From contig NZ_JADJNN010000008.1 of assembly GCF_016714285.1 (NCBI RefSeq), positions 132,669 to 196,668 on the forward strand: a stretch of DNA of 64,000 nt, written 5' to 3'. The stretch's first letter is position 1. Each line of letters begins with the position of its first letter. The position numbers and the translations under genes were made by a program. Under the pieces are notes generated by a model. It did not search any database. It had not been told where the DNA came from and worked only from the letters and a program-made list of their open reading frames with translations. This document shows, piece after piece, positions 1-54,465 of this stretch. This DNA comes from Nannocystis sp. Its GTDB lineage: Bacteria > Myxococcota_A > Polyangia > Nannocystales > Nannocystaceae.

Positions 1-356
1 GCGTCGGAGGTGTTCATATAGTCCCACCAGCGGCCATAGAGCGCCTCGCGGGTGAGGCCGGGTTTGGCGGCCGTCTCGACGATCTGGTCCATCACGCGGG
101 TGAAGGTGAAGCCGGCGAGCAGGGCCTCATCGGTGACGGCGAGCGAGCGGCGCGGGTCGAGGTCGAAGGTGTCGCCGCAGACCTGCGCGGAGGGATCGGG
201 GGTGGTGAAATCTGAGGGGCCGGCGGGGACCGGTTTGGGGACCGCGATCGGATCTGTCCTTGCGGACATGTCCTCGGGGTCACACGCGGACAGGGCCAGG
301 ATCGCGGGGGCGCACGAGGCTAAAATTAAGGTGAGCCGGAGCGGAGCTGCGTACAC
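1..356 (-). CDS. Partial N-terminal fragment of a hypothetical lipoprotein; it runs off the window start
   Basis: The minus-strand frame reads V/MYAAPLRLTLILASCAPAILALSAC(lipobox)DPEDMSARTDPIAVPKPVPAGPSDFTTPDPSAQVCGDTFDLDPRRSLAVTDEALLAGFTFTRVMDQIVETAAKPGLTREALYGRWWDYMNTSD. Composition is protein-like, with a signal peptide and lipobox. The GTG start near 354-356 is uncertain; an internal ATG lies near 267-269. Confidence 0.4.
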   Translation of the reverse strand, partial: MYAAPLRLTLILASCAPAILALSACDPEDMSARTDPIAVPKPVPAGPSDFTTPDPSAQVCGDTFDLDPRRSLAVTDEALLAGFTFTRVMDQIVETAAKPGLTREALYGRWWDYMNTSD

Positions 357-483
357 GGGGCCAGGATAACCAAGCGCCTAAGTCTCCGCCAGCGCGGGGA
401 TTGCCGGGATCGGGGCGCGCCCTGGAGGCAGCGCGGAGGGACGTGGCCGCGGGGGCGATGCCGTCGCTGTGCGAGCCCGTGGG

Positions 484-1539
484 TCAGCGGGGCTGCTTGC
501 GGGCGGTGCGGGCGGCGAGGCGGGTCTTGACGCGCTCGGCCTTGGCCTCCTCGGCGGCGAGGAGCTCGGCCTCGTCGCTGGCCTGGGCGGCCTCGAACTC
601 GTTCCACAGGCCGGTGAGGAGCTGGTCCTGATCGGTCCACGGGGTGCCGTCGAGGCCCTTGTCGGGCTCGACGCCCAGCATCTTGAGGGTGACGGCCTGG
701 TCCGGGTTGAGGCCGACTTTCTGGGCCCGGCCGCGGAAGAAGCGCTTCATCGTCGCGGCGGTCTCCTCGTACTTGCTGGGGCACAGCTTGCCGCCGCTGA
801 CGGCGCGGTGGACGGTCTCCCACGTGGCCTTGGTGGTGTAGTTGAAGGGCTTGCCCTGCTCGTCCTTGCAGACGATGTTGCCGCCGGCCTTGCGGATCAT
901 GCGGGCGGCGGCGCGGCGGTAGACGAGCACGTCGACGATCGCGTCGCAGAGGATGCGGGGGTCGGCGGTCTTGTCCCAGACCAGGGTGAAGTAGTTGGAG
1001 TTCATCCCGAACAGGCCGTAGGTCTGCCACACCGATGGGTCGGCGGCGTGGGGGTTGCCCTCGTAGGTCTTCTGCATCTTGCGCCACGCGGAGTAGCTGC
1101 CCTCGAGGTCGGGCGAGAGGCGGTGCACGAGGCCCTGCTGCAGGCTCGACTCGCGGGCGGCGACCAGCTGGAGCAGCTTGTGGAACTCGTCGCTGGCCTT
1201 GAGCCGCTTGGCGACGTGGGCGATGACGCGGTGGGTCCGGACCTGCTCGGTGCGGGTGAGCTTGGGGCGCTTGTCGTTGACGCCGTGGACGCAGGCGCAA
1301 GGCAGCAGGCCCTGCACGGCCGCGCGGTCGTCGATGAAGCTGCCTTCAGGATCGCGGTCGACGCGGACCGGCATCAGAGGCGCCGGAGCGCTGATGGCGT
1401 CGTCGAGGTTGTCGGCGGCGATGTGCCGACCGGGCAGCGTCCCATCCGCTTCATCCATCTTCGCACTGGCTCCATCGTCGAAGACATCGGTCAAGAAGCC
1501 GATGCAGTAGGCCAGGGCTGTCAGTTGCACCAATCGCAT
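484..1539 (-). CDS. Hypothetical secreted protein of 351 aa, unknown function
   Basis: The ORF has a hydrophobic N-terminus (MRLVQLTALAYCIGFLTDVF) and a non-biased composition. A GGGAGAG ribosome-binding site sits 7 nt upstream of the ATG at 1539. I did not recognise a family. Confidence 0.6.
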   Translation of the reverse strand: MRLVQLTALAYCIGFLTDVFDDGASAKMDEADGTLPGRHIAADNLDDAISAPAPLMPVRVDRDPEGSFIDDRAAVQGLLPCACVHGVNDKRPKLTRTEQVRTHRVIAHVAKRLKASDEFHKLLQLVAARESSLQQGLVHRLSPDLEGSYSAWRKMQKTYEGNPHAADPSVWQTYGLFGMNSNYFTLVWDKTADPRILCDAIVDVLVYRRAAARMIRKAGGNIVCKDEQGKPFNYTTKATWETVHRAVSGGKLCPSKYEETAATMKRFFRGRAQKVGLNPDQAVTLKMLGVEPDKGLDGTPWTDQDQLLTGLWNEFEAAQASDEAELLAAEEAKAERVKTRLAARTARKQPR

Positions 1540-2110
1540 TCCGGCACTCTCCCTTCGGCGGCAACCGCCGACGTGTTCCAGGACACCAAGGAGAAACCGA
1601 TCCAGTGTCTCCAGTCCATAGCCACGCGAAATTTTTTGCCGATCGCGGAGGGTTTAGATGCGCCCGCAGGGGCCCAAAGACGCGCTTATGCGGGACATTC
1701 CCGCCCGGCTCGCGGGCCCTGTTTCACTGTCAGATTGTGTGTGCGCGCGGGCTCGATCGAATGTGCCAGCCACAAGTTGTGGACCGCGATCGCGGCGCGC
1801 TCGCAAGATGTAGTGGTGTCACTGCCAGCCCCCGCGCGAGCTCGAGAGTCGCGCGCACTGGCAGGGTCGATGTCGCTTGCGGCGTCGTCGCGCGGCGCGA
1901 AACGGCCGCGTGCACGCGTGCTCCGGCGCAGATCAAGCGGGGCGGGTGATCGACGCGGTGGGTCGGCGCGCCTGATCGCTACGCGCGGCGCGCTCGCGGC
2001 GCTCGGGCCGGCGCCGCGGCGCGCCGCAGATGTCCTTGTCGACATGTCCCAAGCGCCAGGCTGTGCGCGGCGTGGACGGTGAGCGAGGCTGGCCTTCGGG
2101 ACAGCTTTGA

Positions 2111-3109
2111 TCACAGCTCGCGGAGGCCGCGGCGGCGCAGCAGCCACAGGAACAGCGGGGCGCCGAGCAGGCTGGTGAGCACGCCCGGCGGGAGGACGAC
2201 GCTGGTGAAGGCGCGGGCGAGGGTGTCGACGAGGAGGACGAGCACGGCGCCGAGCAGGGCGGCGCGCGGCAGCAAGTGGCGGTGACCGGGGCCGCCCTGC
2301 ATGCGCGCGAGGTGGGGGACCAGCAGGCCGACGAAGGCGATGACGCCGCTGATCGCCGTGGCGGCGCCGACCAGGAGGCCGACGGCGAGCACGGTGCGGC
2401 GGCGCAGGCGGACGAGGTCGACGCCGAGCGAGGCGGCGACGTCGTGGCCGAGGTGGAGGGTGTCGAGGTCGCGGCGCAGCGAGGCGGCGAGCGCGAGGCC
2501 GAGGACGCAGGGGGGCAGGGCCCAGGCGAGGTGGATCCAGGTGCGGCCCTCGAAGCTGCCGAGGCTCCACTGCATCACGCGCAGGCCGAGGTCCCAGCGC
2601 TGGGCGCCGAGGGCGAGGCAGAGGGTCGCGATCGCGGCGCAGAGGGTGCCGAGGGCGAAGCCGGAGAGCAGGAGGGTGGCGAGGCTGTGGTTGGCGCGGT
2701 GGAGGGCGAGGAGGATGACGAGGACCAGGCCCGCGCCGGCGGCGGCGAGCAGCGGGGTGACCCACAGGCCGCTGGATTCGGCGCCGAGGAGGAAGCCGAT
2801 GACGGCGGCGAGCATGGCCCCGGCGCTGACGCCGAGGACGCCGGGGTCGGCGAGCGGGTTGCGGAACAGGCCCTGGGTGAGGGCGCCGGCGCAGGCCAGG
2901 GCGGCGCCGACGAGCGCGGCGAGCAGGGCCCGGGGCAGGCGCAGCTGCCAGACGATCGCGTCGCGCAGCGGTGGGAGCGGGTCGCCGAGGCCGAGGTGGG
3001 CGAGCAGGCTGCGCAGGGCCTCGTCGAGGCCGACCTCGCCGGGACCTGTCCCGAGGGCCAGGAGCAGGGCGGCGGGGAGGAGCAGGGCGGTGAGGTGGCG
3101 CAGGCGCAT
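2111..3109 (-). CDS. btuC: ABC transporter permease of the FecCD/BtuC family
   Basis: The motif FRNPLADPGVLGVSAGA and the polytopic hydrophobic profile are typical of the FecCD family. It lies downstream of a BtuF-like binding protein in a riboswitch-controlled B12 locus. Confidence 0.9.
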   Translation of the reverse strand: MRLRHLTALLLPAALLLALGTGPGEVGLDEALRSLLAHLGLGDPLPPLRDAIVWQLRLPRALLAALVGAALACAGALTQGLFRNPLADPGVLGVSAGAMLAAVIGFLLGAESSGLWVTPLLAAAGAGLVLVILLALHRANHSLATLLLSGFALGTLCAAIATLCLALGAQRWDLGLRVMQWSLGSFEGRTWIHLAWALPPCVLGLALAASLRRDLDTLHLGHDVAASLGVDLVRLRRRTVLAVGLLVGAATAISGVIAFVGLLVPHLARMQGGPGHRHLLPRAALLGAVLVLLVDTLARAFTSVVLPPGVLTSLLGAPLFLWLLRRRGLREL

Positions 3110-3181
3110 GGGACTGGCGGGCGAGGACGCGGGCGGGCGGAGTCGTGGGCCAGCGAGCGGGCCGAGGCGGAGGTCAGCGGG

Positions 3182-4087
3182 TCAGCGGGCGAGGACGCGG
3201 GCCTGCAGGAGCTCGGCGCTGACGATCATACCCTCGCCGGTGCCGCCGAGGTCGCGGGCGGGGATGGCGATGATGCGGCCGTCGCGGGCGGCGCGGGTGG
3301 CCGCGATGCCGGGGCCGGCGGCGAAGCGGGCCTCGGCGGCGGGGCAGGCGGGGTCGTCGGCCTCGGCGGCGGGGCAGGCGATGACGATGACCTCGGGGTC
3401 CCAGGCGACGAGGCGCTCCATGGCCACAGGGACATGTCCCGAGAGACCTGCGCTTTCGGGCAGGTTGACGAGGCCCGCGGCGGCGGCGACGTCGGCGAAG
3501 GTCGTGGCGCCGGCGCTGGTGTGGCCGTCGCCCCAGGCGACCGCGGTGGGCGCGGGGTCGGGCCTGTGGGCGGCGAGGGCGGCGAGGCGGCGGTCGAGGT
3601 TGGCGATGCTGGCCTCGGCGGCGGGGCTGGCCTCGACGGCGGCGGCGAGCAGGCGGAGCTGACGGCGGTAGTCGGCGAAGCCGGTGAAGCTGTCGAGCTC
3701 GAGCAGGCGGACGCGGTGGGCGGTGAGGAGGGCCTTGATCTCGGGGGCGCTGAAGCTGGCGATGACGACCAGGTCGGGGTCGCGGGCGAGCAGGCCCTCG
3801 CTGGTGACGGCGAGGCGCGGGAGCTCGGGCGGCCACTGGCCGGCGACGCGGCTGTAGCGGGGGTCATCGGCCATGCTGCTGACGCCGACGACGCGGGCGC
3901 GCGCGGCCGGGCCGAGGCTCCACAGGATCTCGTCGCTCAGCACGGTCTGCGAGACGACGCGGTGGGCCGGGCCGGTGCTGGGGGTCGGGGTCGGGGCGCA
4001 GGCGGCGAGCAGCAGCGCGGCGAGGAGCGGGGCGCGACGATGCTGTCCTGAGGGACAGGTGATCTGGCCGGAGGGACAGGTGGTCAT
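3182..4087 (-). CDS. btuF: Periplasmic cobalamin/siderophore-type ABC substrate-binding lipoprotein, BtuF-like (Peripla_BP_2)
   Basis: The ORF track extends to 4555, but that upstream portion overlaps the neighbouring gene and is compositionally junk. The real start is the ATG at 4085-4087, giving MTTCPSGQITCPSGQHRRAPLLAALLLAACAP with lipobox LAAC, overlapping the upstream gene's stop as ATGA. The sequence RVVSQTVLSDEILWSLG...VVGVS resembles BtuF/FhuD-class binding proteins. Confidence 0.85.
   Translation of the reverse strand: MTTCPSGQITCPSGQHRRAPLLAALLLAACAPTPTPSTGPAHRVVSQTVLSDEILWSLGPAARARVVGVSSMADDPRYSRVAGQWPPELPRLAVTSEGLLARDPDLVVIASFSAPEIKALLTAHRVRLLELDSFTGFADYRRQLRLLAAAVEASPAAEASIANLDRRLAALAAHRPDPAPTAVAWGDGHTSAGATTFADVAAAAGLVNLPESAGLSGHVPVAMERLVAWDPEVIVIACPAAEADDPACPAAEARFAAGPGIAATRAARDGRIIAIPARDLGGTGEGMIVSAELLQARVLAR
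4044..4082. repeat. CTGTCC-tgag-GGACAG palindrome plus two copies of GAGGGACAGGTG with a 21-bp period, at the lipoprotein A / btuF junction
   Basis: The structure can be read directly. It encodes TCPSGQI TCPSGQH at the BtuF N-terminus. Confidence 0.9.
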
Positions 4088-5304
4088 GGGAGCGGGGTGG
4101 CGGCGTAGGGGGCCAGGCCGGTGGCGATCGGTGTGCCGGCGAAGCGCGGGGTCGGCGGGTCGGCGCGCAGGTCCCACGCGCGCATGCCGGCGGCGGTGGG
4201 GGTGACGTCGCCGAACCATAGCGTGTCGCCGACGATCTCGAGGGTGGGGCCGACCGACTGGAGGCCGCGGGCGACCTCGACGATCGGCGCGTCGTCGTCG
4301 AGGCTGGCGCGCAGGAGCAGCACCTGGGACAGGTCGGCGCTGTAGCTGGCGATGTAGGCGTGGCGGTGCTCGGCGTCGAGGTCGAAGGCCTGGGGCAGCT
4401 GGTAGTCGGCGAGGCCGATCGCGGCGAGGCGGGCGGGGTCGACGGCCCAGGTGGAGGTGCGCTGGGCCAGGTCGACGCGCTCGAGGCCGGTGGTGAGGAT
4501 CAGGACGCTGTGGCCGGTGGGGTCGGCGGGGTCGGGGCGCCACTGCCGGGCCCACAGGCCGAGCAGGGGCATGGCTTGCACGCCGGGGCTCGCGGGATCG
4601 AGGTCGTGGAGGCGGCGGCTCGGGAGGTCGATCGGGGCGAGGTGGTCGCGGGTGTCGGTGGGCGCGAGCAGCTGGTTCTGGTCGAGGCGCTGGACGCTGA
4701 CGAAGAGCGTGTCGCCGCAGCGGATCGCCAGGTGGGCCTCGGGGTTGCCGTCGGCGTCGGCGAGCGGTGCGAGGTCGATGTGGCCGGCGAGGCTCGGGCG
4801 CGCGGGGTCGGCGATGTCGACGATCTGCACGCGCGGGGCGCCGAACATGGTGACGTGGGCGAGGTCGCCGACGACGGTGACCGCGTGCGGGTTGCTGCTC
4901 TGGACGCCGGGGACGGCGAGGCTCTGCTGGCCGAGCAGGGCGAGGCTGTCGGGCGCGAGCAGGTCGAGGGCGTCGAAGGTGTAGCGGTGGAGGACGATCA
5001 GGCGGCCGTCGCTGAAGACAGGGAGCGAGTCGGTGGTGGCGAGGGCGAGGTCCTTGTGGAGCTCGCCGGTGGCGAGGTCGAGGATGCTGAGCGCGCCGGT
5101 GCTGAAGTCGGTGGTGGTGATGGCGAGGCGGGTCGGGTCGCTGAGCTCGCCGACGCAGGCCTCGTCGAGCTCGGGTGGGCCCGCGAGCGGGGGGGCGGCC
5201 CCGGTGTCGCTGGTGTCGCTGGCGGCGGAGCTGGCGTCGTCGTCGGGTGGGGCGCAGGCCAACACGAGGCTGGCCGCGAGGACAGGTGCGAGGGGGCGGC
5301 GCAT
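4084..5304 (-). CDS. Lipoprotein paralog A of the B12 locus, 407 aa, possibly a beta-propeller and possibly BtuG-like
   Basis: The real start is MRRPLAPVLAASLVLACAPP with lipobox LVLAC, at the ATG complement 5302-5304. It shares blocks with the next gene, for example HSVLILTTGLERVDLAQRTSTWAVDPARLAAIGL against HTILVLTSGIERVDLAHGTSSWAVDPAVLAAAGI. Repeated Asp-rich loop and strand periodicity suggests a propeller. Confidence 0.7.
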   Translation of the reverse strand: MRRPLAPVLAASLVLACAPPDDDASSAASDTSDTGAAPPLAGPPELDEACVGELSDPTRLAITTTDFSTGALSILDLATGELHKDLALATTDSLPVFSDGRLIVLHRYTFDALDLLAPDSLALLGQQSLAVPGVQSSNPHAVTVVGDLAHVTMFGAPRVQIVDIADPARPSLAGHIDLAPLADADGNPEAHLAIRCGDTLFVSVQRLDQNQLLAPTDTRDHLAPIDLPSRRLHDLDPASPGVQAMPLLGLWARQWRPDPADPTGHSVLILTTGLERVDLAQRTSTWAVDPARLAAIGLADYQLPQAFDLDAEHRHAYIASYSADLSQVLLLRASLDDDAPIVEVARGLQSVGPTLEIVGDTLWFGDVTPTAAGMRAWDLRADPPTPRFAGTPIATGLAPYAATPLP

Positions 5305-5306
5305 GG

Positions 5307-6590
5307 TCAGGGGATCGCGAGCAGGAGGTAGGGGTCGCCGGGGGTGGCGATCGGGTCGGCCTCGACCGGGGGATCCTCGCTGAGATCGAAGCTGCGCAGG
5401 CGGGGGTTGTCGGTGGCGGCGTCGCCGACCCACAGGAGCTCGCCGACGCGCTCGATCGCCTTGTCGCGGGCGGTGAGGCCGGGGATCAGCTTGTGCGCGC
5501 TCGGGGCTTGCTCGCCCAGGCGGACGCGGAAGACGGCGGCGGCCGGGTAGTCGCCGTCGGTGGCGAGGAGGTCGATGCTGGTGGCGTCGGCGGCGACGCT
5601 GAAGCCGATCGGATCGAAGCCGTCGATGCCGGCGGCGGCGAGCACCGCGGGGTCGACCGCCCAGCTGGATGTCCCATGGGCCAGGTCGACGCGCTCGATG
5701 CCGGAGGTGAGGACGAGGATGGTGTGGCCGCTCGGGTCAGCGGGGTCGAGGCGGGCCTGCTTGGGCCAGGGGCCGAGGAGGGCGATCGCCTGCTCACCGG
5801 GGGTGCTCGGGTCGACGTCGATCGGCTCGCCGGTGCCGAGGTTCATGGCGACGAGGTAGCTGAGGTCGACGGGGTTGAAGTTGACGAGGCGCTGGACGCC
5901 GACGAACAGGGCCTCGCCGCAGGTGAAGGCGAGGCCGGGCTCGGGGCTGCCGTCGCGGTCGGCGAAGTCGATCAGGCTGAGGGCGTCGACCTTGGCCTCG
6001 GCGGCCGGGAGGTCGAGGTCGTAGACGGGGAGCTGCGCGCTGGCGAAGGCGGTGAGGTGGGCGCGGCCGTCGGGGCCGAAGGCGAGGGCCTGCGGGTTGG
6101 GGTCGGCGACGCCGTCGACGCTGACCATGAGCGTGGGCTTGGCGGCCCAGGTGTCGCCGTCGAGGATGTCGAGGCTGTTGAAGCCGAAGCGGCCGATGAT
6201 GACCAGCTTGCCGTCGCCCCACGCGAGCGCGGAGTCGGCGGGGGCGGGCGCGATGTCGGGGGTGAGCTTGTTGCTGGCGAGGTCGAGGACGTGGACGCTG
6301 GCGGGGTCCATGAGGTTGTTGGTGAGGATCGCCAGGCGGGTCGCGGTGGTCGGGCCGAGCGCGCAGGGGGCGTCGAGCTCGATGACGGGGGCCGGGTCGC
6401 CGGTGGTGGCGGTGTCGGTCGTGGCGTCGGTGCTCGTCGGTGCGGTGGTGGGCGCGCTGGTCTGGCTGGTTTCACCTGTGCTTTCGGACATGTCTGTTGT
6501 GCCAGCTTCGGCGCTGTCGCCGGTGCCGTGACCGGTGTTGGTGTGGCAGGCGGAGAGGAGGAGGAGGACGGGGAGGGTGGGGCGGAGCAT
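5307..6590 (-). CDS. Lipoprotein paralog B of the B12 locus, 427 aa, possibly a beta-propeller and possibly BtuG-like
   Basis: It starts MLRPTLPVLLLLSACHTNTG with lipobox LLSAC, followed by a Thr/Ser-rich linker. It is a paralog of 4084..5304. Its ATG lies 3 nt after the btuB stop, in the arrangement TGAtccATG. Confidence 0.7.
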   Translation of the reverse strand: MLRPTLPVLLLLSACHTNTGHGTGDSAEAGTTDMSESTGETSQTSAPTTAPTSTDATTDTATTGDPAPVIELDAPCALGPTTATRLAILTNNLMDPASVHVLDLASNKLTPDIAPAPADSALAWGDGKLVIIGRFGFNSLDILDGDTWAAKPTLMVSVDGVADPNPQALAFGPDGRAHLTAFASAQLPVYDLDLPAAEAKVDALSLIDFADRDGSPEPGLAFTCGEALFVGVQRLVNFNPVDLSYLVAMNLGTGEPIDVDPSTPGEQAIALLGPWPKQARLDPADPSGHTILVLTSGIERVDLAHGTSSWAVDPAVLAAAGIDGFDPIGFSVAADATSIDLLATDGDYPAAAVFRVRLGEQAPSAHKLIPGLTARDKAIERVGELLWVGDAATDNPRLRSFDLSEDPPVEADPIATPGDPYLLLAIP

Positions 6591-6593
6591 GGA

Positions 6594-8840
6594 TCAGGTC
6601 TCGTGGCGGGCCGGGGCGTCGAGCTCGACGCGGAGGGTGGTCCACAGGCTGGTGCCGGGGAGCGGGTAGAAGAAGAAGTCGGAGACGGGGACGGTGATCG
6701 CGGGGGCGCCGGCGATCGGCGGGCGCCAGGTGGTGGTGCGGAGGTTGAAGAGGTTGCGCACCTCGGCGGCGAGGTGGACGCGGCGGGCGAGGTGCAGCTC
6801 GACGGCGAGGCCGTGGAGGGCGCGGCTCGGGACCTCGTAGCGGCCGCTCGGGTCGAGGAAGGTGCGGGCCGCGTAGTCGAAGCTGTAGACCAGGCGCGGC
6901 TCGAGATCGGTGCGCCTGGCCTTGAAGACATGTCCGAAAGAACCTTGCGCGAACAGCTCGTGGCGCGGGCGACCGGGCAGGGGCTGGCCGCGCTGGGAGG
7001 GGTCGTCGCCGAGGTTGACGGGGGCGAGCAGGGTGTAGTTGGCGGACAGGCGGATGTCGCCGCGGAGCAGGCGGAGCGCGGCGCTGGTCTCGAAGCCGGA
7101 GACGCGGGCGCGGGCGACGTTCACGGGGCGCAGGCTGGGACCGGCCTGCTGCCACTGGATCAGGCGGTCGCTCCACGTGACGAAGCCAGCGGCGTGGGCG
7201 TAGAGGGATGTGCGGGCGCGGGTGAGGTCGAGGATGAAGCCGCCGTCGAGGCTGCTGCCGCGCTCGGGTCGCAGGCCCTCGTTGCCGACGATGTAGCCGC
7301 GGTCGCCGAACAGCTCGAGCAGGCTCGGGGGACGGAAGTAGCGGCCGCCGGCGAGGCGGAGGGAGAGGCCGTGGACGAGGCCGAGGCGGGCGGCGAGGCG
7401 CGGGCTGGCGCCGAGCTCGAGGTGGTCGGCGCCCTGGTCGTTCTGCTCGCCGCTGCCGGCGGGGACGGCGAAGCGGCTGCGGAGGACGTCGAGGCGGACG
7501 ATCGGCTGGAGGTGGAGACGATCGCCGGCGAGGTGTTGATCGAGCTGGAGGCCGAGGCCGAGGTTGACGCGCTGGCGGTTGCTGTCGCCCTGGGGCGGCG
7601 TGAGCAGGCGCTGGTCGACGCGGCTCCACTCCTGGCGGGCGTCGGCCATGGCGAGCAGCTGGGCGCCGCGCCACAGATCGAGGGTGAGGCGCGGCGAGAG
7701 GTAGAGGTCGAGGTTCCGGGTGCGCTGGTCGTCGACCCCGAGGCCGACCTCGCCGAGCGGGTCGCGGTAGCGGGTGCGCTCGACGGCGAAGCCGGCGACC
7801 AGGTCGACGTGGCCGGGGCGACCGCCGTCGTCGCCGAGCTCGCGGCGCACCCGGGCGACGCTGCGGGCGACCAGAGTGTCCAGCCTGGTGGCACGCGCCT
7901 GCTGGCCGGTGGCGAGGCCGGGGATGCCCTGGTGCTTGTTGAGCAGCAGCTCCTGGACGCTGTAGCGCCACGCGCCGGCGCGGCCGTGAACGGCGAGCTG
8001 GGCGAGCAGGCGGTCGTAGTCGTTGTTCTGGCGCCGCTCGTTGTGGTCGTCGCGGGGGTCTTGCAGGGTCTCGCCGAGGTTGTGGAAGTTGAAGTCCCCG
8101 GTGGCGCCGGCGTGGCCGATGCGGAGGTCGAGGCAGGGGCCGCGGCGGCGCGGGGCGAGCGGGAGGGAGGTGCTGGCGCGGGCCTCGCTAGCGCCGAAGG
8201 AGCCGAGGCCGAGGACGGCGCCGAAGCGGCGGCGGGTCGGGTCGCAGCGCAGGTCGCTGCCGAGATCGAGGGCGCCGCCGATCGCCGCGCCGCCGTACGC
8301 GACCGGGACCAGGCCGCGGTGGATCGTGACGCGGCCGAGGCTGTCGAGCGGGAGGTCGCCGAGGTTGACGACCCCGCCGCTGCCGCCGACCGGGACGCCG
8401 TCGAGGAAGACCGACACCTGCTGGGCTGAGGAGCCGCGCAGCGAGAGGGCGGAGAACTGGCCGAGGCCGCCGAGTGAGCGCACGGTGGCGCCGGCGCTGC
8501 GACCGAGCAGCTCGGGCAGGCCGTCGGCCGGGCGGGCGCCGGTGGGGTTGGCGAGCTCGATGCTGGTGGCGAAGCCGGGGCTGGCGGCGTCCTGCCGGCG
8601 CTGGGCGTCGAGGCCGTCGCCGCGGCCGTGGGCGACGACGGTGCGGTAGGGCGGGCTGGTCTTTGGGACAGGCTGGGTTGGGCTGGTCTTTGGGACAGCG
8701 GGGCTGGTCTTTGGGACAGCGGGGCTGGTCTTTGGGACAGGTGGCGCGAGGGCGCGGAGCTCGCGGGTGGTCAGCAGGGCGGCCGCGCAGGCGCACGCAG
8801 GCGCGAGGCGCACGCAGGCGACACGTATCGCGAGCCGCAC
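6594..8840 (-). CDS. btuB: TonB-dependent outer-membrane receptor, BtuB-like, controlled by a cobalamin riboswitch
   Basis: The plug domain reads SIELANPTGARPADGLPELLGRSAGATVRSLGGLGQFSALSLRGSSAQQVSVFLDGVPVGG...TIHRGLVPVAYGGAAIGGALDLGS and is followed by a long beta-barrel. The N-terminal extension carries the repeat APPVPKTSPAVPKTSPAVPKTSPTQPVPKTSP. The start is GTG. The C-terminus is atypical, ending ...LWTTLRVELDAPARHET. Confidence 0.9.
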   Translation of the reverse strand: MRLAIRVACVRLAPACACAAALLTTRELRALAPPVPKTSPAVPKTSPAVPKTSPTQPVPKTSPPYRTVVAHGRGDGLDAQRRQDAASPGFATSIELANPTGARPADGLPELLGRSAGATVRSLGGLGQFSALSLRGSSAQQVSVFLDGVPVGGSGGVVNLGDLPLDSLGRVTIHRGLVPVAYGGAAIGGALDLGSDLRCDPTRRRFGAVLGLGSFGASEARASTSLPLAPRRRGPCLDLRIGHAGATGDFNFHNLGETLQDPRDDHNERRQNNDYDRLLAQLAVHGRAGAWRYSVQELLLNKHQGIPGLATGQQARATRLDTLVARSVARVRRELGDDGGRPGHVDLVAGFAVERTRYRDPLGEVGLGVDDQRTRNLDLYLSPRLTLDLWRGAQLLAMADARQEWSRVDQRLLTPPQGDSNRQRVNLGLGLQLDQHLAGDRLHLQPIVRLDVLRSRFAVPAGSGEQNDQGADHLELGASPRLAARLGLVHGLSLRLAGGRYFRPPSLLELFGDRGYIVGNEGLRPERGSSLDGGFILDLTRARTSLYAHAAGFVTWSDRLIQWQQAGPSLRPVNVARARVSGFETSAALRLLRGDIRLSANYTLLAPVNLGDDPSQRGQPLPGRPRHELFAQGSFGHVFKARRTDLEPRLVYSFDYAARTFLDPSGRYEVPSRALHGLAVELHLARRVHLAAEVRNLFNLRTTTWRPPIAGAPAITVPVSDFFFYPLPGTSLWTTLRVELDAPARHET
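8652..8740. repeat. In-frame tandem array inside btuB: four copies of GGGCTGGTCTTTGGGACAG, three with a 21-bp period
   Basis: The array can be read directly. It encodes PKTSPAV repeats. Confidence 0.9.
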
Positions 8841-9019
8841 GTAGGCGACGCGAATGAAGCTGCGGCGCCCGTGGGCGCGCGAGGGCGTGGGGATCTTGGG
8901 GACGATGGCGAGTGAACTCCCGTCTCACCGAGGTCGTCCGCGCCGGTGGGCGCAGGGACCTGCCGCCTTGTCAGGGCGGGGGAGCGCAGGGCAGGTCTCC
9001 TGGCTAAAGGGTCATCCTC

Positions 9020-9160
9020 GATCGACGCCTTCCCACGGTCCTGCGGGTGCAGGAGCTCGCAGTGGCTGCGTGTCGATCTCGTCGCCTCTCACAGTGGCGG
9101 GAGCCGCGTCGGTGTTGCACCGACTTCCCTCTTTCGCGTCCTGGGCCCTGGGCCCGGGAC
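9020..9160 (-). promoter_or_regulatory. Cobalamin (AdoCbl) riboswitch in the 5' leader of btuB
   Basis: The minus strand reads gaaagAGGGAAGTCGGTGCAACACCGACGCGGCTCCCGCCACTGTGAGAGGCGACGAGATCGACACGCAGCCACTGCGAGCTCCTGCACCCGCAGGACCGTGGGAAGGCG. This contains the conserved AGGGAA...GGTG.AA...CCCGCCACTGT element, a second GCCACTG B12 box and GGGAAGGC. It ends about 180 nt upstream of the btuB start. Confidence 0.75.
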
Positions 9161-9209
9161 GACCGTGCGCTCGAGTCTGTTTGTCAGGGAACGGCGCACT
9201 TGTCGCTCG

Positions 9210-9223
9210 CAAGCGCGCGCTTG
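9210..9223. promoter_or_regulatory. Perfect 14-bp palindrome CAAGCGCGCGCTTG, a candidate operator in the divergent region
   Basis: The palindrome can be read directly. It lies in the 560-bp non-coding region between the btuB leader and the metzincin gene, flanked by cttgtc repeats. Confidence 0.3.
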
Positions 9224-9398
9224 TCAACGACGCACGCGCGGACTTGCTGGGATTCTCACGCGCGCATGCGTACGGGGACGGAGAAACGTGCTGGCTGGCC
9301 CGTGGGAGCCGACATTAGTGGCATTTCGAGTGAGGATCGGACCCGGGTCGGACCTGTGGCGGGTTGCAATACCCACAAAACAAAAATAAGGTCAGTAG

Positions 9399-11012
9399 AT
9401 GAGAAACGCGCTCTCTGCTTCCTGTATTTTCATCACCGCGTTCGCCACCGGGTGTGGCGACGACAAGGCCGGGGACGAGGCGGGCGGCACGACGGAGGCC
9501 GCGAGCACGAGCGGCGGTGAGGACCCGACGACCGGCGAGCCCTTCGTGCCGTTTCCGGCGCGCGGCGGGATCGTGATCACGGCGGTCGAGGCCAACCCGG
9601 GGGTGGCGGTGCCGATCGGGAAGGAGGGCGCGCCGGTCGGCGGCAAGGACCGCACCTCGTATATCCCGAAGGGCCGCGACACGCTGATCCGGGCCTTCGT
9701 CGACGTGCCCGACGATTGGACCCCGCGGCCGATCGAGGCGCGCCTGATGCTGAGCGGCGGAGGCGTGGACCAGACGCTGCAACAGACAGTGACGATCAGC
9801 GAGGACTCGTTCGTGGGCGACCTGACCTCGACCTTTTACTTCGGCGTGCACGCGGACGTGATCGTGCCGGGGCTCAAGTACCAGATCGAGCTGTGGGAGG
9901 CGGCGCCGGGCCAGGAGGGGCTGCCCGAGGCGCCGACGCCGGTGGCGCTCAAGGACGGGCCGGGCCCGGTCGGGGTGGAGTCGGCCTTCACCGAGATGCG
10001 CGTGGTGTTGGTCCCGATCGACTACAGCTACGAGAGCTGCAACCAGAAGGTCGATGGCGAGGCGCAGCGCAAGGCCTTCGAGGACGCGCTGTTCCAGCAG
10101 AACGGCATCGCGTCGCTCGAGCTCGAGGTGCACGCGCCGTACAAGGTCGACTACGACATGGTCAGCTTCGGCGGCCTGAGCCAGCTGGTCAACGAGATGA
10201 GTCAGCTGCGCACGGTCGAGGCGGCCGACGACAACGTCTACTACTACGCGCTGTTCGACAGCTGCCACGGCTGCATCGGCGACGGCGGGATCCAGGGCGG
10301 GTGCACGGTCGGGCTCGCGGCCGACATCACCGGGCCCGATCCGGGCGACGCCCACTGGCGCGCCGCGGCCGGGCAGCTCATCGGGAACGCGGCCGAGACC
10401 TTCGTCCACGAGATCGGACACACGCAGGGGCGGCAGCACGTGTACTGCGCCGGCGCTGGCGTGCAGGCGCAGGGCACGGATCCGACTTATCCCCACGAGG
10501 ACGGGCGCATCGGCGTGTGGGGCTTTGGCGTCCGCGACTACAAGCTGCGCCATCCGACGGCCAACTCGGACTACATGAGCTACTGCGGGCAGGTCTGGGT
10601 CTCGGACTGGCAGTGGAACGCGACATACAACCGCATCGTGACGCTGAGCCAGTGGGAGAAGTCGGGCGCGGGGCAACCGGCGGGCGCCGGTGGCGGCGTG
10701 CTCATCGCCGCGGTCGACCCCGACGGCAAGCAGATGTGGTGGACCGGCCCCGGCGGGCTGAGCTCGTCGCGCGAGGCGAGCGCGACGCACTCGGTGATCT
10801 TCGAGTTCACGGACGGCGAGGTCGAGGCGCAGGCGCAGGTCAGCGTGCGCCCGCACTACGCGACCCGGAACATCGTCGCCGCGTTGCCGGCGGGCTTCGA
10901 CGAGCGCGAGCTCGTGAGCGTGAAGCTGCGCGACGAGCAGGGTGAGCGCCGCGTGGAGGCGGCGGCGATCCGTCGCCTCCACCACCCGGATCGCCTGCGA
11001 GACGCGCGCTAG
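9399..11012 (+). CDS. Secreted lipoprotein, metzincin-type zinc metalloprotease
   Basis: It starts MRNALSASCIFITAFATGCGDD with lipobox ATGC. The motif HEIGHTQGRQH matches HExxHxxGxxH, and a Met-turn follows at SDYMSY. An unusual AT-rich patch (ccacaaaacaaaaataaggtcagtag) precedes the ATG. Confidence 0.8.
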   Translation: MRNALSASCIFITAFATGCGDDKAGDEAGGTTEAASTSGGEDPTTGEPFVPFPARGGIVITAVEANPGVAVPIGKEGAPVGGKDRTSYIPKGRDTLIRAFVDVPDDWTPRPIEARLMLSGGGVDQTLQQTVTISEDSFVGDLTSTFYFGVHADVIVPGLKYQIELWEAAPGQEGLPEAPTPVALKDGPGPVGVESAFTEMRVVLVPIDYSYESCNQKVDGEAQRKAFEDALFQQNGIASLELEVHAPYKVDYDMVSFGGLSQLVNEMSQLRTVEAADDNVYYYALFDSCHGCIGDGGIQGGCTVGLAADITGPDPGDAHWRAAAGQLIGNAAETFVHEIGHTQGRQHVYCAGAGVQAQGTDPTYPHEDGRIGVWGFGVRDYKLRHPTANSDYMSYCGQVWVSDWQWNATYNRIVTLSQWEKSGAGQPAGAGGGVLIAAVDPDGKQMWWTGPGGLSSSREASATHSVIFEFTDGEVEAQAQVSVRPHYATRNIVAALPAGFDERELVSVKLRDEQGERRVEAAAIRRLHHPDRLRDAR

Positions 11013-11153
11013 GCGGCGATGTCCGCGAAGTCGCGGGATCTCCCCGGGGGCGGTCGCGGCTGCCCCGATCGGGCCCTGATCGGGCCCGTGTCGCCGTGCT
11101 AGGCAGCGCAGGCGACTTGGGATAGCCTCTAGGCCGGAGCTGGAGAAAGCCAG

Positions 11154-11585
11154 ATGCTCGACTTCCCGATCGCAGAGCTCATCACCCCCGAGGAGCAGGT
11201 GGCCGTCGCCCGTGCCGTGGCGATCATGGCCTCGCGCGACAACCAGGTCTCGGACAGCGAGAAGCACTTCGTCGAGGAGCTGATGGGCCAGATGATGCTG
11301 CTCCCCGAGGAGCGCGATCTGGTGCGTCGGGAGTTCTCTACGCCGAACGACTTGATGCAGGTCGCTCGCGCCGTGCAGCACCGCGAGGCTCGCCTCTTCC
11401 TCTTTTACCAGGCGGTCTGCGCGGCGCTCGCCGACAACAAGCTTGTCGATGGCGAGATGGACGCGTTGCTGTCGCTCGCGGACGCCTTCAACTTCCAGAC
11501 CGAGCACGCCAAGGGCTTCATCCGCTGGGTCCGCGACAGCCTCGAGCTGCGTGACCGCGGGCAACAGCTGCTCGTCGAGATGTGA
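11154..11585 (+). CDS. TerB-like (tellurite-resistance TerB family) protein
   Basis: The 143-aa protein carries two D-x4-E type repeats, VSDSEKHFVEEL and LVDGEMDALLSLADAF. A GGAGAAAG ribosome-binding site lies upstream. Confidence 0.55.
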   Translation: MLDFPIAELITPEEQVAVARAVAIMASRDNQVSDSEKHFVEELMGQMMLLPEERDLVRREFSTPNDLMQVARAVQHREARLFLFYQAVCAALADNKLVDGEMDALLSLADAFNFQTEHAKGFIRWVRDSLELRDRGQQLLVEM

Positions 11586-11750
11586 GCCGCGGGGATCGCT
11601 TCCTTGAGCGTTGCGAGGGGCTCGCGGCGCTGGGTTGTGCTCGCGTCGGCTCGGGCGATGGTGCGAGGCGCCGGGATCGGCCCGCAGGGCGGCGAGCGAG
11701 GTTTCCAGGGACTTGCGTTGGCGCGCGCAGGCCCGCATACTCCGCCGCCC

Positions 11751-12311
11751 ATGGCTCGCGTCACCGTCGAAGACTGCCTCGAGAGAATCCCCAATCGCTT
11801 CGCGCTCACCATCCTCGCGGCCCGGCGCGCGCGGGCCCTGCTCGAGAATCGCGGCACGCCGCTGATCGACTGCGAGAACAAGGGGGCCGTCACCGCGCTG
11901 CGGGAGATCGGGGCCGGGTCGGTGCGCTACAACGAGGATGTCGCCGAGGTGATGACCGAGTTCATCGAGGAGCAGCGGCAGAAGCTCAAGCTCACCAGCA
12001 GCGACAACACCTTCCTCGAGGCCGCCGCCTTCAGCGTGATCGAGGGCGAGGAGGCCGATGAGGAGGGCGACGTGATCCCCGAGCTCTCGGCCGACTTCGA
12101 GAAGGTGGGCCTGGCCCCCGTCGAGACGACCGACAGCGACGAGCCGGTCGACGTCGAGGACGCCGACACCGAGGAGGAGGCCCCGGCCGACGACGAGGAG
12201 GCCGACCTGGTCGCCGCCGCCGACATCGACGACGAGGCCGCTGGTCTCGAGGATCTCGACGCTGGCCTCGAGGACGAGGTCGAGCCCGTAGAGGCCGAGG
12301 ACGAGGAATAG
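11751..12311 (+). CDS. rpoZ: DNA-directed RNA polymerase omega subunit with a long acidic C-terminal tail
   Basis: [30 protein letters not shown] matches the RpoZ consensus. The C-terminal ~90 residues are D/E-rich. Confidence 0.85.
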
Positions 12312-12625
12312 TGGGCGCCAGGTCGCGCCGCCGCCTGGTCGGCGTGGCCGGCGGGCTGCTGTTGTGCGGGTGCGTCGACAAGGCGCCGCCGCCCCTGTGG
12401 CCCGCGCCGCCGCCCCCGGCGGTGGCCGAGTTGCTGGGTGATCCAGAGCAGCGGCCGTCGCCTCCTGGGGTCGCGGTGGTCGGGGCGTCTTCGCTGGCGG
12501 GGCCGCCGAGCAAGCTCGACCAGATGCCGGGCAGCAAGGCCAGTGTCCTCGAGCCCCCCAAGGCTCCGAGCGCGGGCCAGGGCGATCCGGCCACGTCGCC
12601 GCGACCGGTGCCGGGCCACCGCTAG
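12311..12625 (+). CDS. Small Pro-rich putative lipoprotein (speculative)
   Basis: A GTG start overlaps the rpoZ stop, followed by MGARSRRRLVGVAGGLLLCGCVDK, a signal-peptide-like segment with a Cys. It fills a gap that would otherwise be a 367-bp intergenic region. The composition is also what GC bias alone would produce. Confidence 0.3.
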   Translation: MGARSRRRLVGVAGGLLLCGCVDKAPPPLWPAPPPPAVAELLGDPEQRPSPPGVAVVGASSLAGPPSKLDQMPGSKASVLEPPKAPSAGQGDPATSPRPVPGHR

Positions 12626-12678
12626 CCGTGGTTTTGCCGCCGCGGTCGGCCGCGCCTGTGCTAAGGCGGGGTCGCGCC

Positions 12679-14199
12679 ATGACTCCGCCGTTTCGAAAGA
12701 TCCTGGTCGCCAATCGCGGTGAGATCGCCCTGCGGGTGTTTCGGACCTGCGCCGAGTACGGCATCCGCACCGTCGCCGTCTACAGCGACGCCGACCGCGA
12801 CGCCCTGCACGCCCAGCAGGCTGACGAGGCGGTGCACATCGGGCCGGCGCCGTCGGCCGAGAGCTACCTGCGCGTCGACAAGATCCTCGCCGCGGCGCGG
12901 GCCACCGGCGCCGAGGCGATCCACCCGGGCTACGGTTTCCTCAGCGAGCGGGCCCACTTCGTCGAGGCGTGCCGCCAGGCGGGTGTGGTCTTCATCGGCC
13001 CCGACGTGCGGGCCATGGAGGTGATGGGCGACAAGATCGGCGCGCGCAAGGCCATGGCTGCGGCCGGCGTGCCGGTGGTGCCCGGGGTGAACGACCTCGA
13101 TTCGATGGCCGCCGTCGAGGCCGCCGCGCGCTCGATCGGCTTCCCGGTGATGCTCAAGGCCTCGGCGGGCGGCGGCGGCAAGGGCATGCGCATCGTCCAC
13201 GAGGCCAGCGAGCTGCGCCGCGCCTACGAGGGCGCCGCGCGCGAGGCGAAGGCCGCCTTCGGCGACGACCGCATGCTGATGGAGCGCGCCGTGCTCGCCG
13301 CGCGTCACGTGGAGATCCAGCTGATGGCCGACCGCCACGGCGGCTGTGTCTACCTCAACGAGCGCGACTGCTCGGTGCAGCGCCGGCACCAGAAGGTCAT
13401 CGAGGAGAGCCCGAGCCCGAGCCCGCAGATGACCCCAGCGGTGCGCGCGGCGATGGGCGAGGTGGCGGTGCGCGCGGCCCGGGCGGTCGACTACTGCGGC
13501 GCTGGCACGGTCGAGTTCCTGTTCGAGGAGCACCCCGAGGGCCCGCGCTTCTACTTCCTCGAGATGAACACTCGCCTGCAGGTCGAGCACCCGGTCACCG
13601 AGGCGACCTGCGGCCGTGACCTGGTGTGGGATCAGATCCGCGTCGCCGCCGGGCAGCCGCTCGGCTACTCGCAGGCCGACGTGGAGCTGCGAGGCCACGC
13701 GATCGAGTGCCGCCTCTACGCCGAGGATCCCCACCGATTTCTGCCGAGCCCGGGCGAGCTCCGGCGCCTGCGCTGGCCGGTGGGCGCCCACATCCGCATC
13801 GACAGCGCGGTCGCCGAGGGCAGCGTTGTGTCCAACTTCTACGACCCGATGATCGCCAAGCTGACGGTGTGGGGACCCGATCGCCCGAGCGCCCTCCGAC
13901 GCATGCGTGAGGCGCTGCGCGAGACGGTCGCGCTGGGCATCGCCACCAACCTCGGGTTTCACCTGCGCGTGCTCGCCGAGCCCGACTTCCTCCGCGGCGA
14001 CTTCTCGACCCGCTACATCGAGCAACATCCAGCGCTGACCGCCGAGCTGCCGATCGCCGAGGCCGAGAGCCAGGCGATCGCGGCGGCGGCGGCGGTGCAC
14101 GCGGCGGCCGCGGTCGGCCGGGGTGGCGTCGCAGCGTCTGGCGCTGTTTCTGCGGCTACTTCGCCGTGGCGTCGCGCCGTTGGCTGGCGTCGGGCGTGA
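12679..14199 (+). CDS. accC: Biotin carboxylase (biotin-dependent carboxylase subunit)
   Basis: MTPPFRKILVANRGEIALRV...GYGFLSE...MLKASAGGGGKGMRIV...EMNTRLQVEHPVTE are the ATP-grasp biotin carboxylase signatures. No BCCP or carboxyltransferase gene is adjacent. Confidence 0.9.
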   Translation: MTPPFRKILVANRGEIALRVFRTCAEYGIRTVAVYSDADRDALHAQQADEAVHIGPAPSAESYLRVDKILAAARATGAEAIHPGYGFLSERAHFVEACRQAGVVFIGPDVRAMEVMGDKIGARKAMAAAGVPVVPGVNDLDSMAAVEAAARSIGFPVMLKASAGGGGKGMRIVHEASELRRAYEGAAREAKAAFGDDRMLMERAVLAARHVEIQLMADRHGGCVYLNERDCSVQRRHQKVIEESPSPSPQMTPAVRAAMGEVAVRAARAVDYCGAGTVEFLFEEHPEGPRFYFLEMNTRLQVEHPVTEATCGRDLVWDQIRVAAGQPLGYSQADVELRGHAIECRLYAEDPHRFLPSPGELRRLRWPVGAHIRIDSAVAEGSVVSNFYDPMIAKLTVWGPDRPSALRRMREALRETVALGIATNLGFHLRVLAEPDFLRGDFSTRYIEQHPALTAELPIAEAESQAIAAAAAVHAAAAVGRGGVAASGAVSAATSPWRRAVGWRRA

Positions 14200-14214
14200 G
14201 CCAGCCGCCGGTGA

Positions 14215-15903
<1,689 letters not shown>

Positions 15904-16062
15904 GGCGCCCGCGGGCGCGGCGGTGGCGATGCCGCGCGGGACCGATCTCCGCGGCGCCACAAATCCCGCAAGTAACGCCGTACTGCCGGGCAAGCCAGGT
16001 GTTTGAGCCTTGGCCCGGTTGTTGCTGCTCTGGTACCGTGGTGGCTCAGCGAGGCGAGTTCC

Positions 16063-17526
<1,464 letters not shown>

Positions 17527-17553
17527 AGTCCCCTCACCAAGAAGGTGCCGCCG

Positions 17554-18216: not shown

Positions 18217-18351
18217 AGGGCCACGGCAGGTGCCGCGGCAGGCGCCACGGACGGGCCAGTCGACGCGTGGTAGGACCAGGCCCGTCGCCGCGGGCGCAGC
18301 GGACGCGCGCAGGAGCTTCGATGCGGGGCCCTGGCGTGTCCGCCTGCTGGT

Positions 18352-22908: not shown

Positions 22909-22933
22909 GCCCGGCCCACGCCACGCCGGGCGC

Positions 22934-23030
22934 CTGTCCCGTGCGCCAGGTGTATGCGGCGGGCGCCGGTCCCGTGCGCCAGGTGTATGCGACCGCCTGT
23001 CCCATGCGCCAGGTGCGAAGGGACCTGTCC
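22934..23030. repeat. Intergenic array of three copies of CTGTCCCRTGCGCCAGGTG plus GGGACCTGTCC, between ptsI and the hydrolase gene
   Basis: The array can be read directly. The period is about 31-32 bp, and it ends about 20 bp before the GTG start at 23051. Confidence 0.85.
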
Positions 23031-23050
23031 TCGCGGTCAGGTAGGCGCGC

Positions 23051-50755: not shown

Positions 50756-50874
50756 ACGCCTGGAGATCGGTCCCGCGCGGGTCCGGCGGCGGCGAGGCGA
50801 GACGCCGCGCGCTCACCGCGAGCGCCGCGGTCGCGCGAGGGCGCGCCCGTGCGAGGCCCGCGGGCGCGCCTGGC

Positions 50875-54463: not shown

Positions 54464-54465
54464 GC

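Follow-up and report, generated by a model that had tools for sequence, protein, structure and literature searches.

A dispersed palindromic motif of Nannocystis as a probable seed of length-variable, in-frame tandem arrays

The stretch of DNA analysed here (the window: 64 kb of contig NZ_JADJNN010000008.1, positions 132,669 to 196,668) has a G+C content of 72%, and its nearest relatives are Nannocystis (Myxococcota) genomes. It contains three tandem arrays that are translated in frame as parts of a TonB-dependent receptor (btuB), a periplasmic-binding lipoprotein (btuF) and an ATP-grasp enzyme. An earlier note, made from the letters of this DNA alone, had described these arrays as independent expansions around one DNA core and proposed that they arise by site-directed duplication or insertion. 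We find that the core is one arm of an imperfect palindrome that is dispersed through the window and that, judged from a species-wide sequence scan, is essentially restricted to Nannocystis. The explanation we favour, with a probability of roughly 0.6, is that this genus-specific palindrome, which resembles repetitive extragenic palindromic (REP) sequences, seeds slipped-strand amplification, the products of which are filtered by reading frame and protein tolerance.

Each of the three arrays is present as the earlier note had claimed, with the peptide given for it. Their positions, units and hosts are as follows (periods, copy numbers and scores from Tandem Repeats Finder).

btuB array, 8653-8740, minus strand: period 21, 3.9 copies, score 122; units at 8725-8740, 8704-8719, 8683-8698 and 8656-8671, each CTGTCCCAAAGACCAG, with spacings of 21, 21 and 27 bp; peptide PVPKTSPA-VPKTSPA-VPKTSPTQ-PVPKTSP, placed between the signal peptide and the TonB-box region (YRTVV), ahead of the Plug domain; host, a TonB-dependent receptor gene at 6594-8813 (minus strand; Plug and barrel domains in Pfam).

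btuF array, 4043-4082, minus strand: period 21, 1.9 copies, encoding MTTCPSGQITCPSGQH; units at 4064-4079 (CTGTCCCTCCGGCCAG) and 4043-4058 (CTGTCCCTCAGGACAG), 21 bp apart; codons 3-15 (TCPSGQI TCPSGQH), ahead of the lipoprotein signal peptide; host, a Peripla_BP_2 lipoprotein gene at 3182-4087 (minus strand) that carries the array at its extreme start and whose ATG overlaps the stop codon of the upstream gene.

ATP-grasp array, 48372-48459, minus strand: period 21, four units, with a 48-bp super-unit; units at 48442-48457, 48421-48436, 48394-48409 and 48373-48388, with spacings of 21, 27 and 21 bp; two alternating unit types, reading CTGTCCCAAGCGCCAG and CTGTCCCCGCGGACAG on the sense strand; peptide DLSQAPA-HLSQAPA-STDLSPRTD-HLSQAPA; host, an ATP-grasp_5 gene of the acetate-CoA ligase family at 47093-48856 (minus strand).

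The heptamer GGGACAG is found in all ten units of the three arrays, so that the statement that every unit contains the core holds for this short form, but the extended form TGGGACAG occurs in only seven, the btuF units reading AGGGACAG and one ATP-grasp unit GGGGACAG. The units stand 21 bp apart, with the exception of a single 27-bp unit in each of the btuB and ATP-grasp arrays, and all spacings are multiples of three. The sequence TGGGACAGG occurs seven times in the window against an expectation of 0.47, a count reached in none of 100 shuffles. The arrays are not assembly artefacts, which the earlier note had considered, because a metagenome-assembled genome (MAG; GCA_016717175.1) and three Logan assemblies of Sequence Read Archive (SRA) data carry the same arrays. 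An exact-protein look-up with the BtuF of the window gave no match.

Rather than an 8- or 9-mer, as had been thought, the shared core is the conserved left arm of a longer motif dispersed over the genome, R-C-CTGTCCC-NNN-GG(A/C)CAG-(G/C)-(T/C), of 16-20 bp (the 20-mer form is ACCTGTCCCGAAGGACAGGT). On the sense strand of the three genes it reads CTGTCCC-N3-GG(A/C)CAG, an imperfect 16-bp palindrome (CTGTCC-N4-GGACAG). When CTGTCCC-N5-CCAG is sought with at most one mismatch, the window holds 27 matches against 2.2 expected, and 0 of 100 shuffles reach 27; the perfect form CTGTCC-N4-GGACAG is present at five sites, where our estimate from base composition is about 0.01. A position matrix from sampled Nannocystis-like loci shows the right-arm C in 94% and the right-arm A in 86% of CTGTCCC heptamers at the fixed spacing. 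The window contains the three coding arrays, two non-coding arrays with 14-bp and 33-bp units and about 12 solitary copies. These copies form about 15 clusters in 64 kb, a dispersal of roughly one cluster per 5-10 kb over coding and non-coding DNA; most clusters lie inside open reading frames (ORFs), and five direct arrays and two or three inverted pairs can be distinguished. The searchable literature gave no account of the motif under the core sequence or under palindromic or tandem repeats of Nannocystis or myxobacteria.

The motif acts at the DNA level and not as a peptide motif, because it is read in three frames, retains a rare codon, has a variable loop between fixed arms and also forms non-coding arrays. 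The core is read as PVP in btuB, CP in btuF and LS in the ATP-grasp gene, and across the sampled loci these frames are used 30, 1 and 24 times, respectively. The first Pro of PVP is encoded by CCT, which accounts for only 3.4% of Pro codons in the genes of the window. At the btuB site, CCT nevertheless encodes this Pro in every intact copy of five further genomes at species level (L100 with its relatives L103, L104 and L107; L101, L102 and L106), the BtuB proteins of which (L100 group, L101, L102 and L106) are 67-75% identical to that of the window. In the same copies the three loop bases and the residue they encode vary (K to S or P), whereas the arms are fixed. With its own spacer and loop in each array and a different frame in each gene, the repeat family thus bears out the view that the arrays are independent local expansions around a single DNA core.

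To assess the distribution of the motif, we scanned the genomes of 185,579 bacterial and archaeal species, one per species, for two motif units 0-30 bp apart. The scan matched at least 94 loci. Among the 80 matches listed by name, 42 were from Nannocystis or Nannocystaceae (ten assemblies), and about ten matches would be expected by chance on our estimate, which takes base frequencies as equal. The other listed matches came from scattered taxa and from unrelated tandem repeats. The Nannocystis loci contain about 1.2 additional independent clusters per 10 kb and the loci of other taxa essentially none, although this density, like the orientation statistics given below for DNA outside the window, comes from loci picked for having two direct copies. 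The motif therefore appears to be restricted essentially to Nannocystis, and extrapolation from the window to 12 Mb suggests more than 1,000 clusters per genome, which is an estimate and not a count.

The spacing of units in the Nannocystis arrays is far from uniform. Spacings of 21 (8 cases), 27 (13), 36 (13), 39 (11), 42 (8), 45 (7) and 54 bp (3) were recorded, with few other values, and non-coding arrays exist with periods of 14, 22, 26, 29, 34, 35, 37 and 38 bp, so that unit length overall ranges from 14 to 54 bp. The 21-bp period on which the earlier note had laid weight is therefore not intrinsic to the repeat, and this period spectrum rules out an inherent period of two helical turns. 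Of the 21 arrays whose period is not a multiple of three, 18 lack a spanning ORF with high G+C at third codon positions (GC3); arrays with multiple-of-three periods number 26 with a spanning ORF and 22 without. These 'no ORF' classes are upper bounds, because our rough gene caller, which relies on GC3, accounts for only 68% of the sampled DNA. About half of the arrays in the sampled loci lie in long ORFs. Because periods vary and those that are not multiples of three are found almost only outside ORFs, frame preservation is best seen as a survivorship filter and not as a property of the generator. Spacer sequence is specific to each array, and of the pairs of neighbouring copies 149 are direct and 27 inverted, the inverted ones favouring no particular spacing (loci selected on direct pairs).

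We compared the arrays with those of relatives to establish whether copy number differs between them, the check that the earlier note had proposed. The MAG mentioned above (contig JADKFZ010000004.1; L095) is 99.2% identical to the window over positions 1-18809 and 99.6% identical over 37093-58847. In the second of these stretches, indels of at least 3 bp occur at only two sites, a 9-bp repeat at about 56742 and the ATP-grasp array. The ATP-grasp array has four units in the window, three and a truncated unit (about 3.5) in the MAG, where it is 21 bp (7 residues) shorter, seven in two independent SRA assemblies about 95% identical to the window and two in a third SRA assembly about 94-95% identical; alignments at about 95% identity break at the array. 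Thus, this array changes rapidly and is length-variable between close relatives at 94-99.6% identity. Among protein orthologues the linker holds 0 to about 12 units, with none in more distant Nannocystis species. A subset of the ATP-grasp orthologues (P0146-P0150) has another motif-encoded array, PVPADSRxxAxS repeated 3-10 times, in another loop, which shows independent seeding at a second site of the protein.

Copy number also differs at the other two sites. A metagenome scan for btuB relatives gave ten loci, five of them informative; orthologues have 0, 1, 3, 4 or 5 or more copies at the btuB site, and one species (L100, L103, L104 and L107) has exactly one copy in all four assemblies. The btuF N-terminus has two copies in the window, one in L101 and none in L100. 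The arrays are therefore not the identical, protein-conserved linkers in all relatives that would have spoken for ordinary low-complexity sequence.

Frame is kept in all array variants other than the btuB array of the MAG. There, 10 bp are missing (CCAGCCCAAC; window about 8677-8686 against L095 about 10111) by a deletion between CCAGCC direct repeats that puts the btuB signal peptide out of frame, and the annotated protein starts MRLRGRPADH...CPKDQPR x3. Elsewhere in the MAG, in the btuF-btuC spacer (window 3115-3154 against L095 about 15652-15675), there is a long poly-C run that is probably a consensus or assembly artefact. This run lowers trust in the other small indels of the MAG, and the btuB frameshift may for that reason be an assembly error. 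No insertion footprint or target-site duplication was definable when loci that have a copy in the same spacer were aligned with loci that lack it, as divergence there is too high and the MAG carries the poly-C run. Immediately ahead of the btuF start, the MAG also carries an insertion of 17+2 bp (window 4126-4134 against L095 14653-14680), so that the lipoprotein gene and btuF are called as one 713-aa ORF.

The three arrays and the solitary intragenic copies all lie outside Pfam domains. The btuF array falls before residue 46, and the ATP-grasp array occupies residues ~132-161 of a protein whose domain spans 355-579. An AlphaFold2 model of the ATP-grasp protein (44 orthologues) has a mean predicted local distance difference test score (pLDDT) of 86.3 and a predicted template modelling score (pTM) of 0.85. 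Its only internal segment with pLDDT below 50, residues 132-154, is the array, which is thus a disordered loop as predicted by the model. Linker arrays are also found in unrelated proteins of other Nannocystis, after the kinase domain of a Ser/Thr kinase and between TonB_C and Plug in a TonB-dependent receptor. In the window, several clusters lie directly at signal peptides of exported proteins. Within ORFs of the array-selected loci there is no strong 5' positional bias, the distribution being roughly flat. The suggestion that the arrays are length-variable cassettes that modulate surface or N-terminal regions is upheld for length variability but not for a functional role; the arrays lie in disordered or extra-domain segments. 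With head-to-tail units in frame, polymorphic copy number and a structurally tolerant location, they have the attributes of coding minisatellites, or variable-number tandem repeats (VNTRs).

These observations can be accommodated by the following scheme. When a copy of the palindrome lies beside a second copy, or after a first local duplication, the 16-bp direct repeats would drive gain and loss of whole units, probably through slipped-strand mispairing or unequal recombination, and the palindrome may assist amplification by stalling replication. The outcome would be a minisatellite whose unit length, 14 to 54 bp, is fixed by local spacing. Inside genes, selection would keep only units that are multiples of three, and coding arrays would survive at sites that tolerate extra disordered peptide, such as those after signal peptides, at N-termini and in inter-domain loops, with the Cys-encoding frame avoided. 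Such a filter would explain why the three arrays of the window all have 21- or 27-bp units and are in frame. The 10-bp indel in the btuB array is consistent with slippage in being flanked by the CCAGCC direct repeat, with the reservation, given above, that the deletion in the MAG may be an assembly error. That the arms are conserved in sequence while structural compensation is absent suggests that a protein recognises the DNA in a sequence-specific way, and we infer that the palindrome serves, in REP-like fashion, as a DNA site for some protein rather than as an RNA hairpin.

Several observations weigh against this scheme. In the externally annotated 40 kb of the window, 6 of 13 motif clusters are no more than 130 nt away from a start codon, where the background is 20% (permutation p ~0.03), and a seventh cluster, at ~254-293, apparently coincides with another annotated start. 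The motif is kept at the same btuB site in genomes that are 67-82% identical at the protein level, and over the sampled loci it is oriented sense in 55 cases and antisense in 16 (about 3:1). Nearness to start codons, persistence in btuB and the sense bias hint at a cis-acting function, which a neutral or selfish repeat model does not predict. However, the same patterns could come from tolerance of insertions at N-termini together with the fit of the C-rich strand to Pro/Ser linkers, and the samples are small. Slippage alone also does not explain the unrelated spacers that separate copies in some clusters, most clearly L024; such spacers suggest either very old arrays or repeated independent arrival. 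The clusters at L024 155-380 and L091 7560-7860 have five to seven motif copies with spacers of 11-38 bp that are partly or wholly unrelated, and spacings that are all multiples of three. The selection of the sampled loci for direct pairs, noted above, is a further weakness, and slippage as the amplifying process is what we infer, where a dedicated enzyme could have done the same.

On a bolder reading, the palindrome would be a functional cis-element for a hypothetical Nannocystis protein whose activity makes and maintains the in-frame arrays. We consider this unlikely. Candidates for the protein are a tag-less REP-type transposase or nickase, a nucleoid factor or an RNA-binding factor at cistron 5' ends. 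If it were true, the motif would be a lineage-specific engine for the low-complexity linkers of Nannocystaceae and for length variation in exported proteins such as BtuB.

We have similarly little expectation, though some, that the palindrome is a cis-acting RNA element, a hairpin or protein site in mRNA that serves processing, stability, translation start or partial termination at cistron boundaries, with the arrays as multiplied signals. The only Rfam match in the whole window is a cobalamin riboswitch (RF00174; 8973-9182, minus strand; 98 bits) 130 nt upstream of btuB. It is context outside the repeat system, but its place upstream of a TonB-dependent receptor lends support to the identification of btuB and to B12 control of an operon that comprises btuB, two unknown genes, btuF and btuC. 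Of the five genes of this operon, btuB to btuC, four have a motif cluster at the start, and a cluster also lies just past the last stop. Copies that overlap a stop codon or abut a start codon, UUCG-type loops in several copies, the sense-strand bias and the good folding of the 33-bp non-coding array (z = -2.9) all fit an RNA signal. Against this, the arms show no compensatory covariation (the mismatched pair CTGTCC..GGCCAG occurs in five copies in the window and the compensated CTGGCC..GGCCAG in none), the coding arrays fold at or marginally above the level of shuffled sequences (z 0.03 to -2.7, with z = 0.03 for the ATP-grasp sense strand), about a quarter of oriented copies are antisense and no Rfam match falls on the motif. 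A simple conserved hairpin is ruled out by the missing covariation and the unremarkable fold energies. It is also quite unlikely that we are dealing with a classical family of REP sequences or of their paired form (REPINs), moved by an IS200/IS605-like Y1 transposase of the REP-associated (RAYT) type, in which case the coding arrays would be intragenic REP clusters. The motif is indeed short, palindromic, high-copy and lineage-specific, yet its consensus in the position matrix has no terminal GTAG or CGTC tag, its 16-20 bp fall below the typical REP length, its copies stand mostly head to tail (149 against 27, in a sample biased to direct pairs), unlike REPIN doublets or the alternation of bacterial interspersed mosaic elements (BIMEs), and a large fraction of them is intragenic. 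In the ~44 kb over which the MAG matches the window, none of the called genes is listed with a transposase-like Pfam match, several of them having no Pfam match at all. The proposal of the earlier note, in which a nuclease or recombinase recognises the core and generates programmed length variation in exported or N-terminal regions, has in its favour that one core is central to many independent arrays, that their length changes rapidly, that many copies come just after signal peptides of exported proteins and that a 10-bp change in the btuB array frameshifts a signal peptide in the 99.2% MAG. We nevertheless find it improbable. No candidate enzyme was identified, arrays are present in cytoplasmic enzymes and non-coding DNA too, unit sizes vary widely, the frameshifted MAG has a homopolymer artefact nearby and its deletion may be an assembly error, and the species with a single btuB-site copy holds exactly that number in its four assemblies. 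Site-directed duplication or insertion is not needed, as slippage between adjacent direct copies suffices to explain the arrays.

Two further explanations are largely refuted. That the arrays are ordinary low-complexity linkers selected as peptides, for PVPxxS or LSxGT, with the DNA core as a by-product, is very improbable on the evidence of frame use and codon choice. Many orthologues do have a recognisable PVPK(A/T)S at the corresponding place in BtuB, and myxobacterial proteomes, above all those of Nannocystaceae, are unusually rich in low-complexity sequence (PMC6821194). Yet three frames give three unrelated peptides, the rare CCT codon is kept, the loop triplet varies while the arms stay constant, the DNA is palindromic and the motif also occurs in non-coding arrays with periods that are not multiples of three. 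That the arrays are operators through which these particular genes are regulated, for instance by a B12-responsive repressor, is hardly credible in view of the distribution of the motif. Two arrays do lie in the riboswitch-controlled btuB-btuF operon, the motif is palindromic and a 21-bp spacing is close to two helical turns; however, unrelated genes carry the motif, of which each genome has an estimated 1,000 or more clusters, spacing is not fixed (14 to 54 bp) and copy number at orthologous sites runs from 0 to 7. An operator or iteron array is ruled out by the variable spacing and the unrelated hosts, which include TonB-dependent receptors, kinases, glycogen enzymes and the ATP-grasp enzyme. 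A CRISPR array is likewise ruled out, as within any one array the spacers are almost identical copies and are part of the in-frame translation; no cas-type Pfam family was found among the neighbouring genes that have matches, several neighbours having no Pfam match.

The proposed seeding of slippage by a dispersed palindrome has its closest described parallel in REP families. REP sequences and BIMEs, like the Nannocystis motif, are short, GC-rich imperfect palindromes that are lineage-specific, high-copy and clustered at gene ends (PMC3733652). Intragenic copies, N-terminal positions, the supply of stop codons, tandem reiteration together with flanking DNA and tolerated peptides have all been documented for REP families (PMC3733652). 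The Nannocystis motif differs in lacking the GTAG/CGTC tag, in being shorter (16-20 bp), in its apparently mostly head-to-tail arrangement and in being far more often intragenic. It is therefore probably not a classical REP, although REP families are the nearest described phenomenon. Rickettsia palindromic elements (RPEs), which are ~100-150 bp long, occur as single in-frame insertions in ORFs at positions tolerated by the fold. They share with the motif the property of a palindromic repeat placed in frame inside ORFs, but are not known to build up hypervariable tandem arrays in which units of 14-54 bp share a 16-bp core. The human Jeffreys core and the mycobacterial interspersed repetitive unit (MIRU) VNTRs provide the precedent of many loci that have their own unit each, one shared core and polymorphic copy number; MIRUs sit at cistron boundaries and preserve reading frames. 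Unlike these shared-core minisatellites, the Nannocystis core is a palindrome of one myxobacterial genus, and many of its arrays are translated as linkers of enzymes and transporters. The cyanobacterial highly iterated palindrome HIP1, an 8-mer, and the uptake sequences of Neisseria and Haemophilus, which are not palindromic, are lineage-specific and abundant in coding regions. They resemble the motif in being read in several frames with a frame preference and in occupying tolerant protein positions; neither HIP1 nor DNA uptake sequences are known to seed tandem arrays. Contingency loci are similar in that repeat-mediated length change occurs near the 5' ends of surface-protein genes. In contrast to simple-sequence contingency loci, units in Nannocystis are 14-54 bp and surviving coding arrays preserve the frame. 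The evidence for phase variation is a single frameshifting change, the 10-bp btuB deletion in the 99.2% MAG that also has the poly-C artefact and in which this sole frameshift may be an assembly error.

Among bacteria, the strongest enrichment in low-complexity protein regions has been reported for myxobacteria, led by Enhygromyxa salina of the Nannocystaceae (PMC6821194). The motif offers a concrete source at the DNA level for part of this enrichment in Nannocystis, in the form of translated minisatellites in unrelated linkers. The arrays are also ready VNTR markers for typing Nannocystis strains and metagenome bins. For annotation, they carry a warning that start-codon and frame calls near arrays are fragile, as the close MAG has one gene called frameshifted and two called fused. 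Should a dedicated binding or mobilising protein exist, the REP concept would extend to a tag-less, largely intragenic family.

The remaining copies of the motif in the window, from left to right, are as follows.

Motif variants (CTGTCCTTGCGGACATGTCC), 254-293: N-terminus of a lipoprotein-like gene that runs off the window.

Inverted pair, 2044-2059 (plus strand) and 2089-2104 (minus strand): starts 7 nt after the stop codon of the FecCD permease gene.

Solitary copy, 3046-3061, plus strand: runs antisense to the FecCD gene at codons ~17-21; L095, L100 and L101 have the identical copy.

Solitary copy with one mismatch, 5270-5285, minus strand: in the signal peptide of the lipoprotein gene 4084-5310; the L101 and L102 orthologues have two copies there.

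Non-coding array, 22927-23040, plus strand: upstream of an alpha/beta-hydrolase gene; three 33-bp units with CTGTCCC-N5-CCAG and a degenerate fourth copy at 23025-23040.

Perfect palindrome CTGTCCCCGGGGACAG, 24067-24082: encodes LSPGT at the signal-peptide end of a PD40/peptidase-like gene (probable GTG start at 23974).

Solitary perfect palindrome, 48033-48048: deeper inside the ATP-grasp gene.

Solitary copy CTGTCCCTTGAGCCAG, 50870-50885, minus strand: its loop provides the TGA stop codon of a 179-aa gene (50875-51414).

Non-coding 14-bp array, 51409-51457, minus strand: CCTGTCCTTTCCAC x3.5, abutting the ATG (51414) of the 179-aa membrane-protein gene.

Two solitary copies, 56801-56816 and 56924-56939, minus strand: N-terminal region of a glycogen-branching-type gene, before the CBM_48 domain.

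Solitary intergenic copy CTGTCCTTCGTGCCAG, 62067-62082, plus strand: adjoins a 9-bp tandem array.

The start codon at 51414 falls in an ATGTCC variant of the core (CACC ATG TCC ...). A start annotated in the MAG maps at about the motif copy at 254-293 and apparently lies inside an ATGTCC core variant too, although this mapping is not base-exact. Variants of the form ATGTCC..GGACAT are also common in other Nannocystis loci.

The window has other tandem repeats besides those of the motif. The 9-bp array that adjoins the solitary copy at 62067 consists of CCCCCATGA x8 in intergenic DNA at 62089-62158, and a 15-bp repeat (CGTCCGTGGTCGGCG x4.7) that does not contain the motif lies at 61768-61837. 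The region of the btuB start and signal peptide carries a second, unrelated tandem repeat (8784-8851, minus strand) with 17- and 27-bp units, CGCAGGCGCACGCAGG..., that encodes repeated ACVRLA. The 99.6% MAG has one unit more in the 9-bp repeat at 56721-56749 (CGGGCACCT x3.2), which lies in the N-terminal part of the glycogen-branching-type gene, and a 10-bp repeat region at 18192-18223 (AGAGGCCAAT / TATTGGCCTC) shows 13 bp of indels between window and MAG. The top-scoring tandem repeat of the window, at 54462-54666, has a 46-bp unit in 4.3 copies (score 247) and spans the 3' end of the glycogen-branching-type gene and the convergent spacer.

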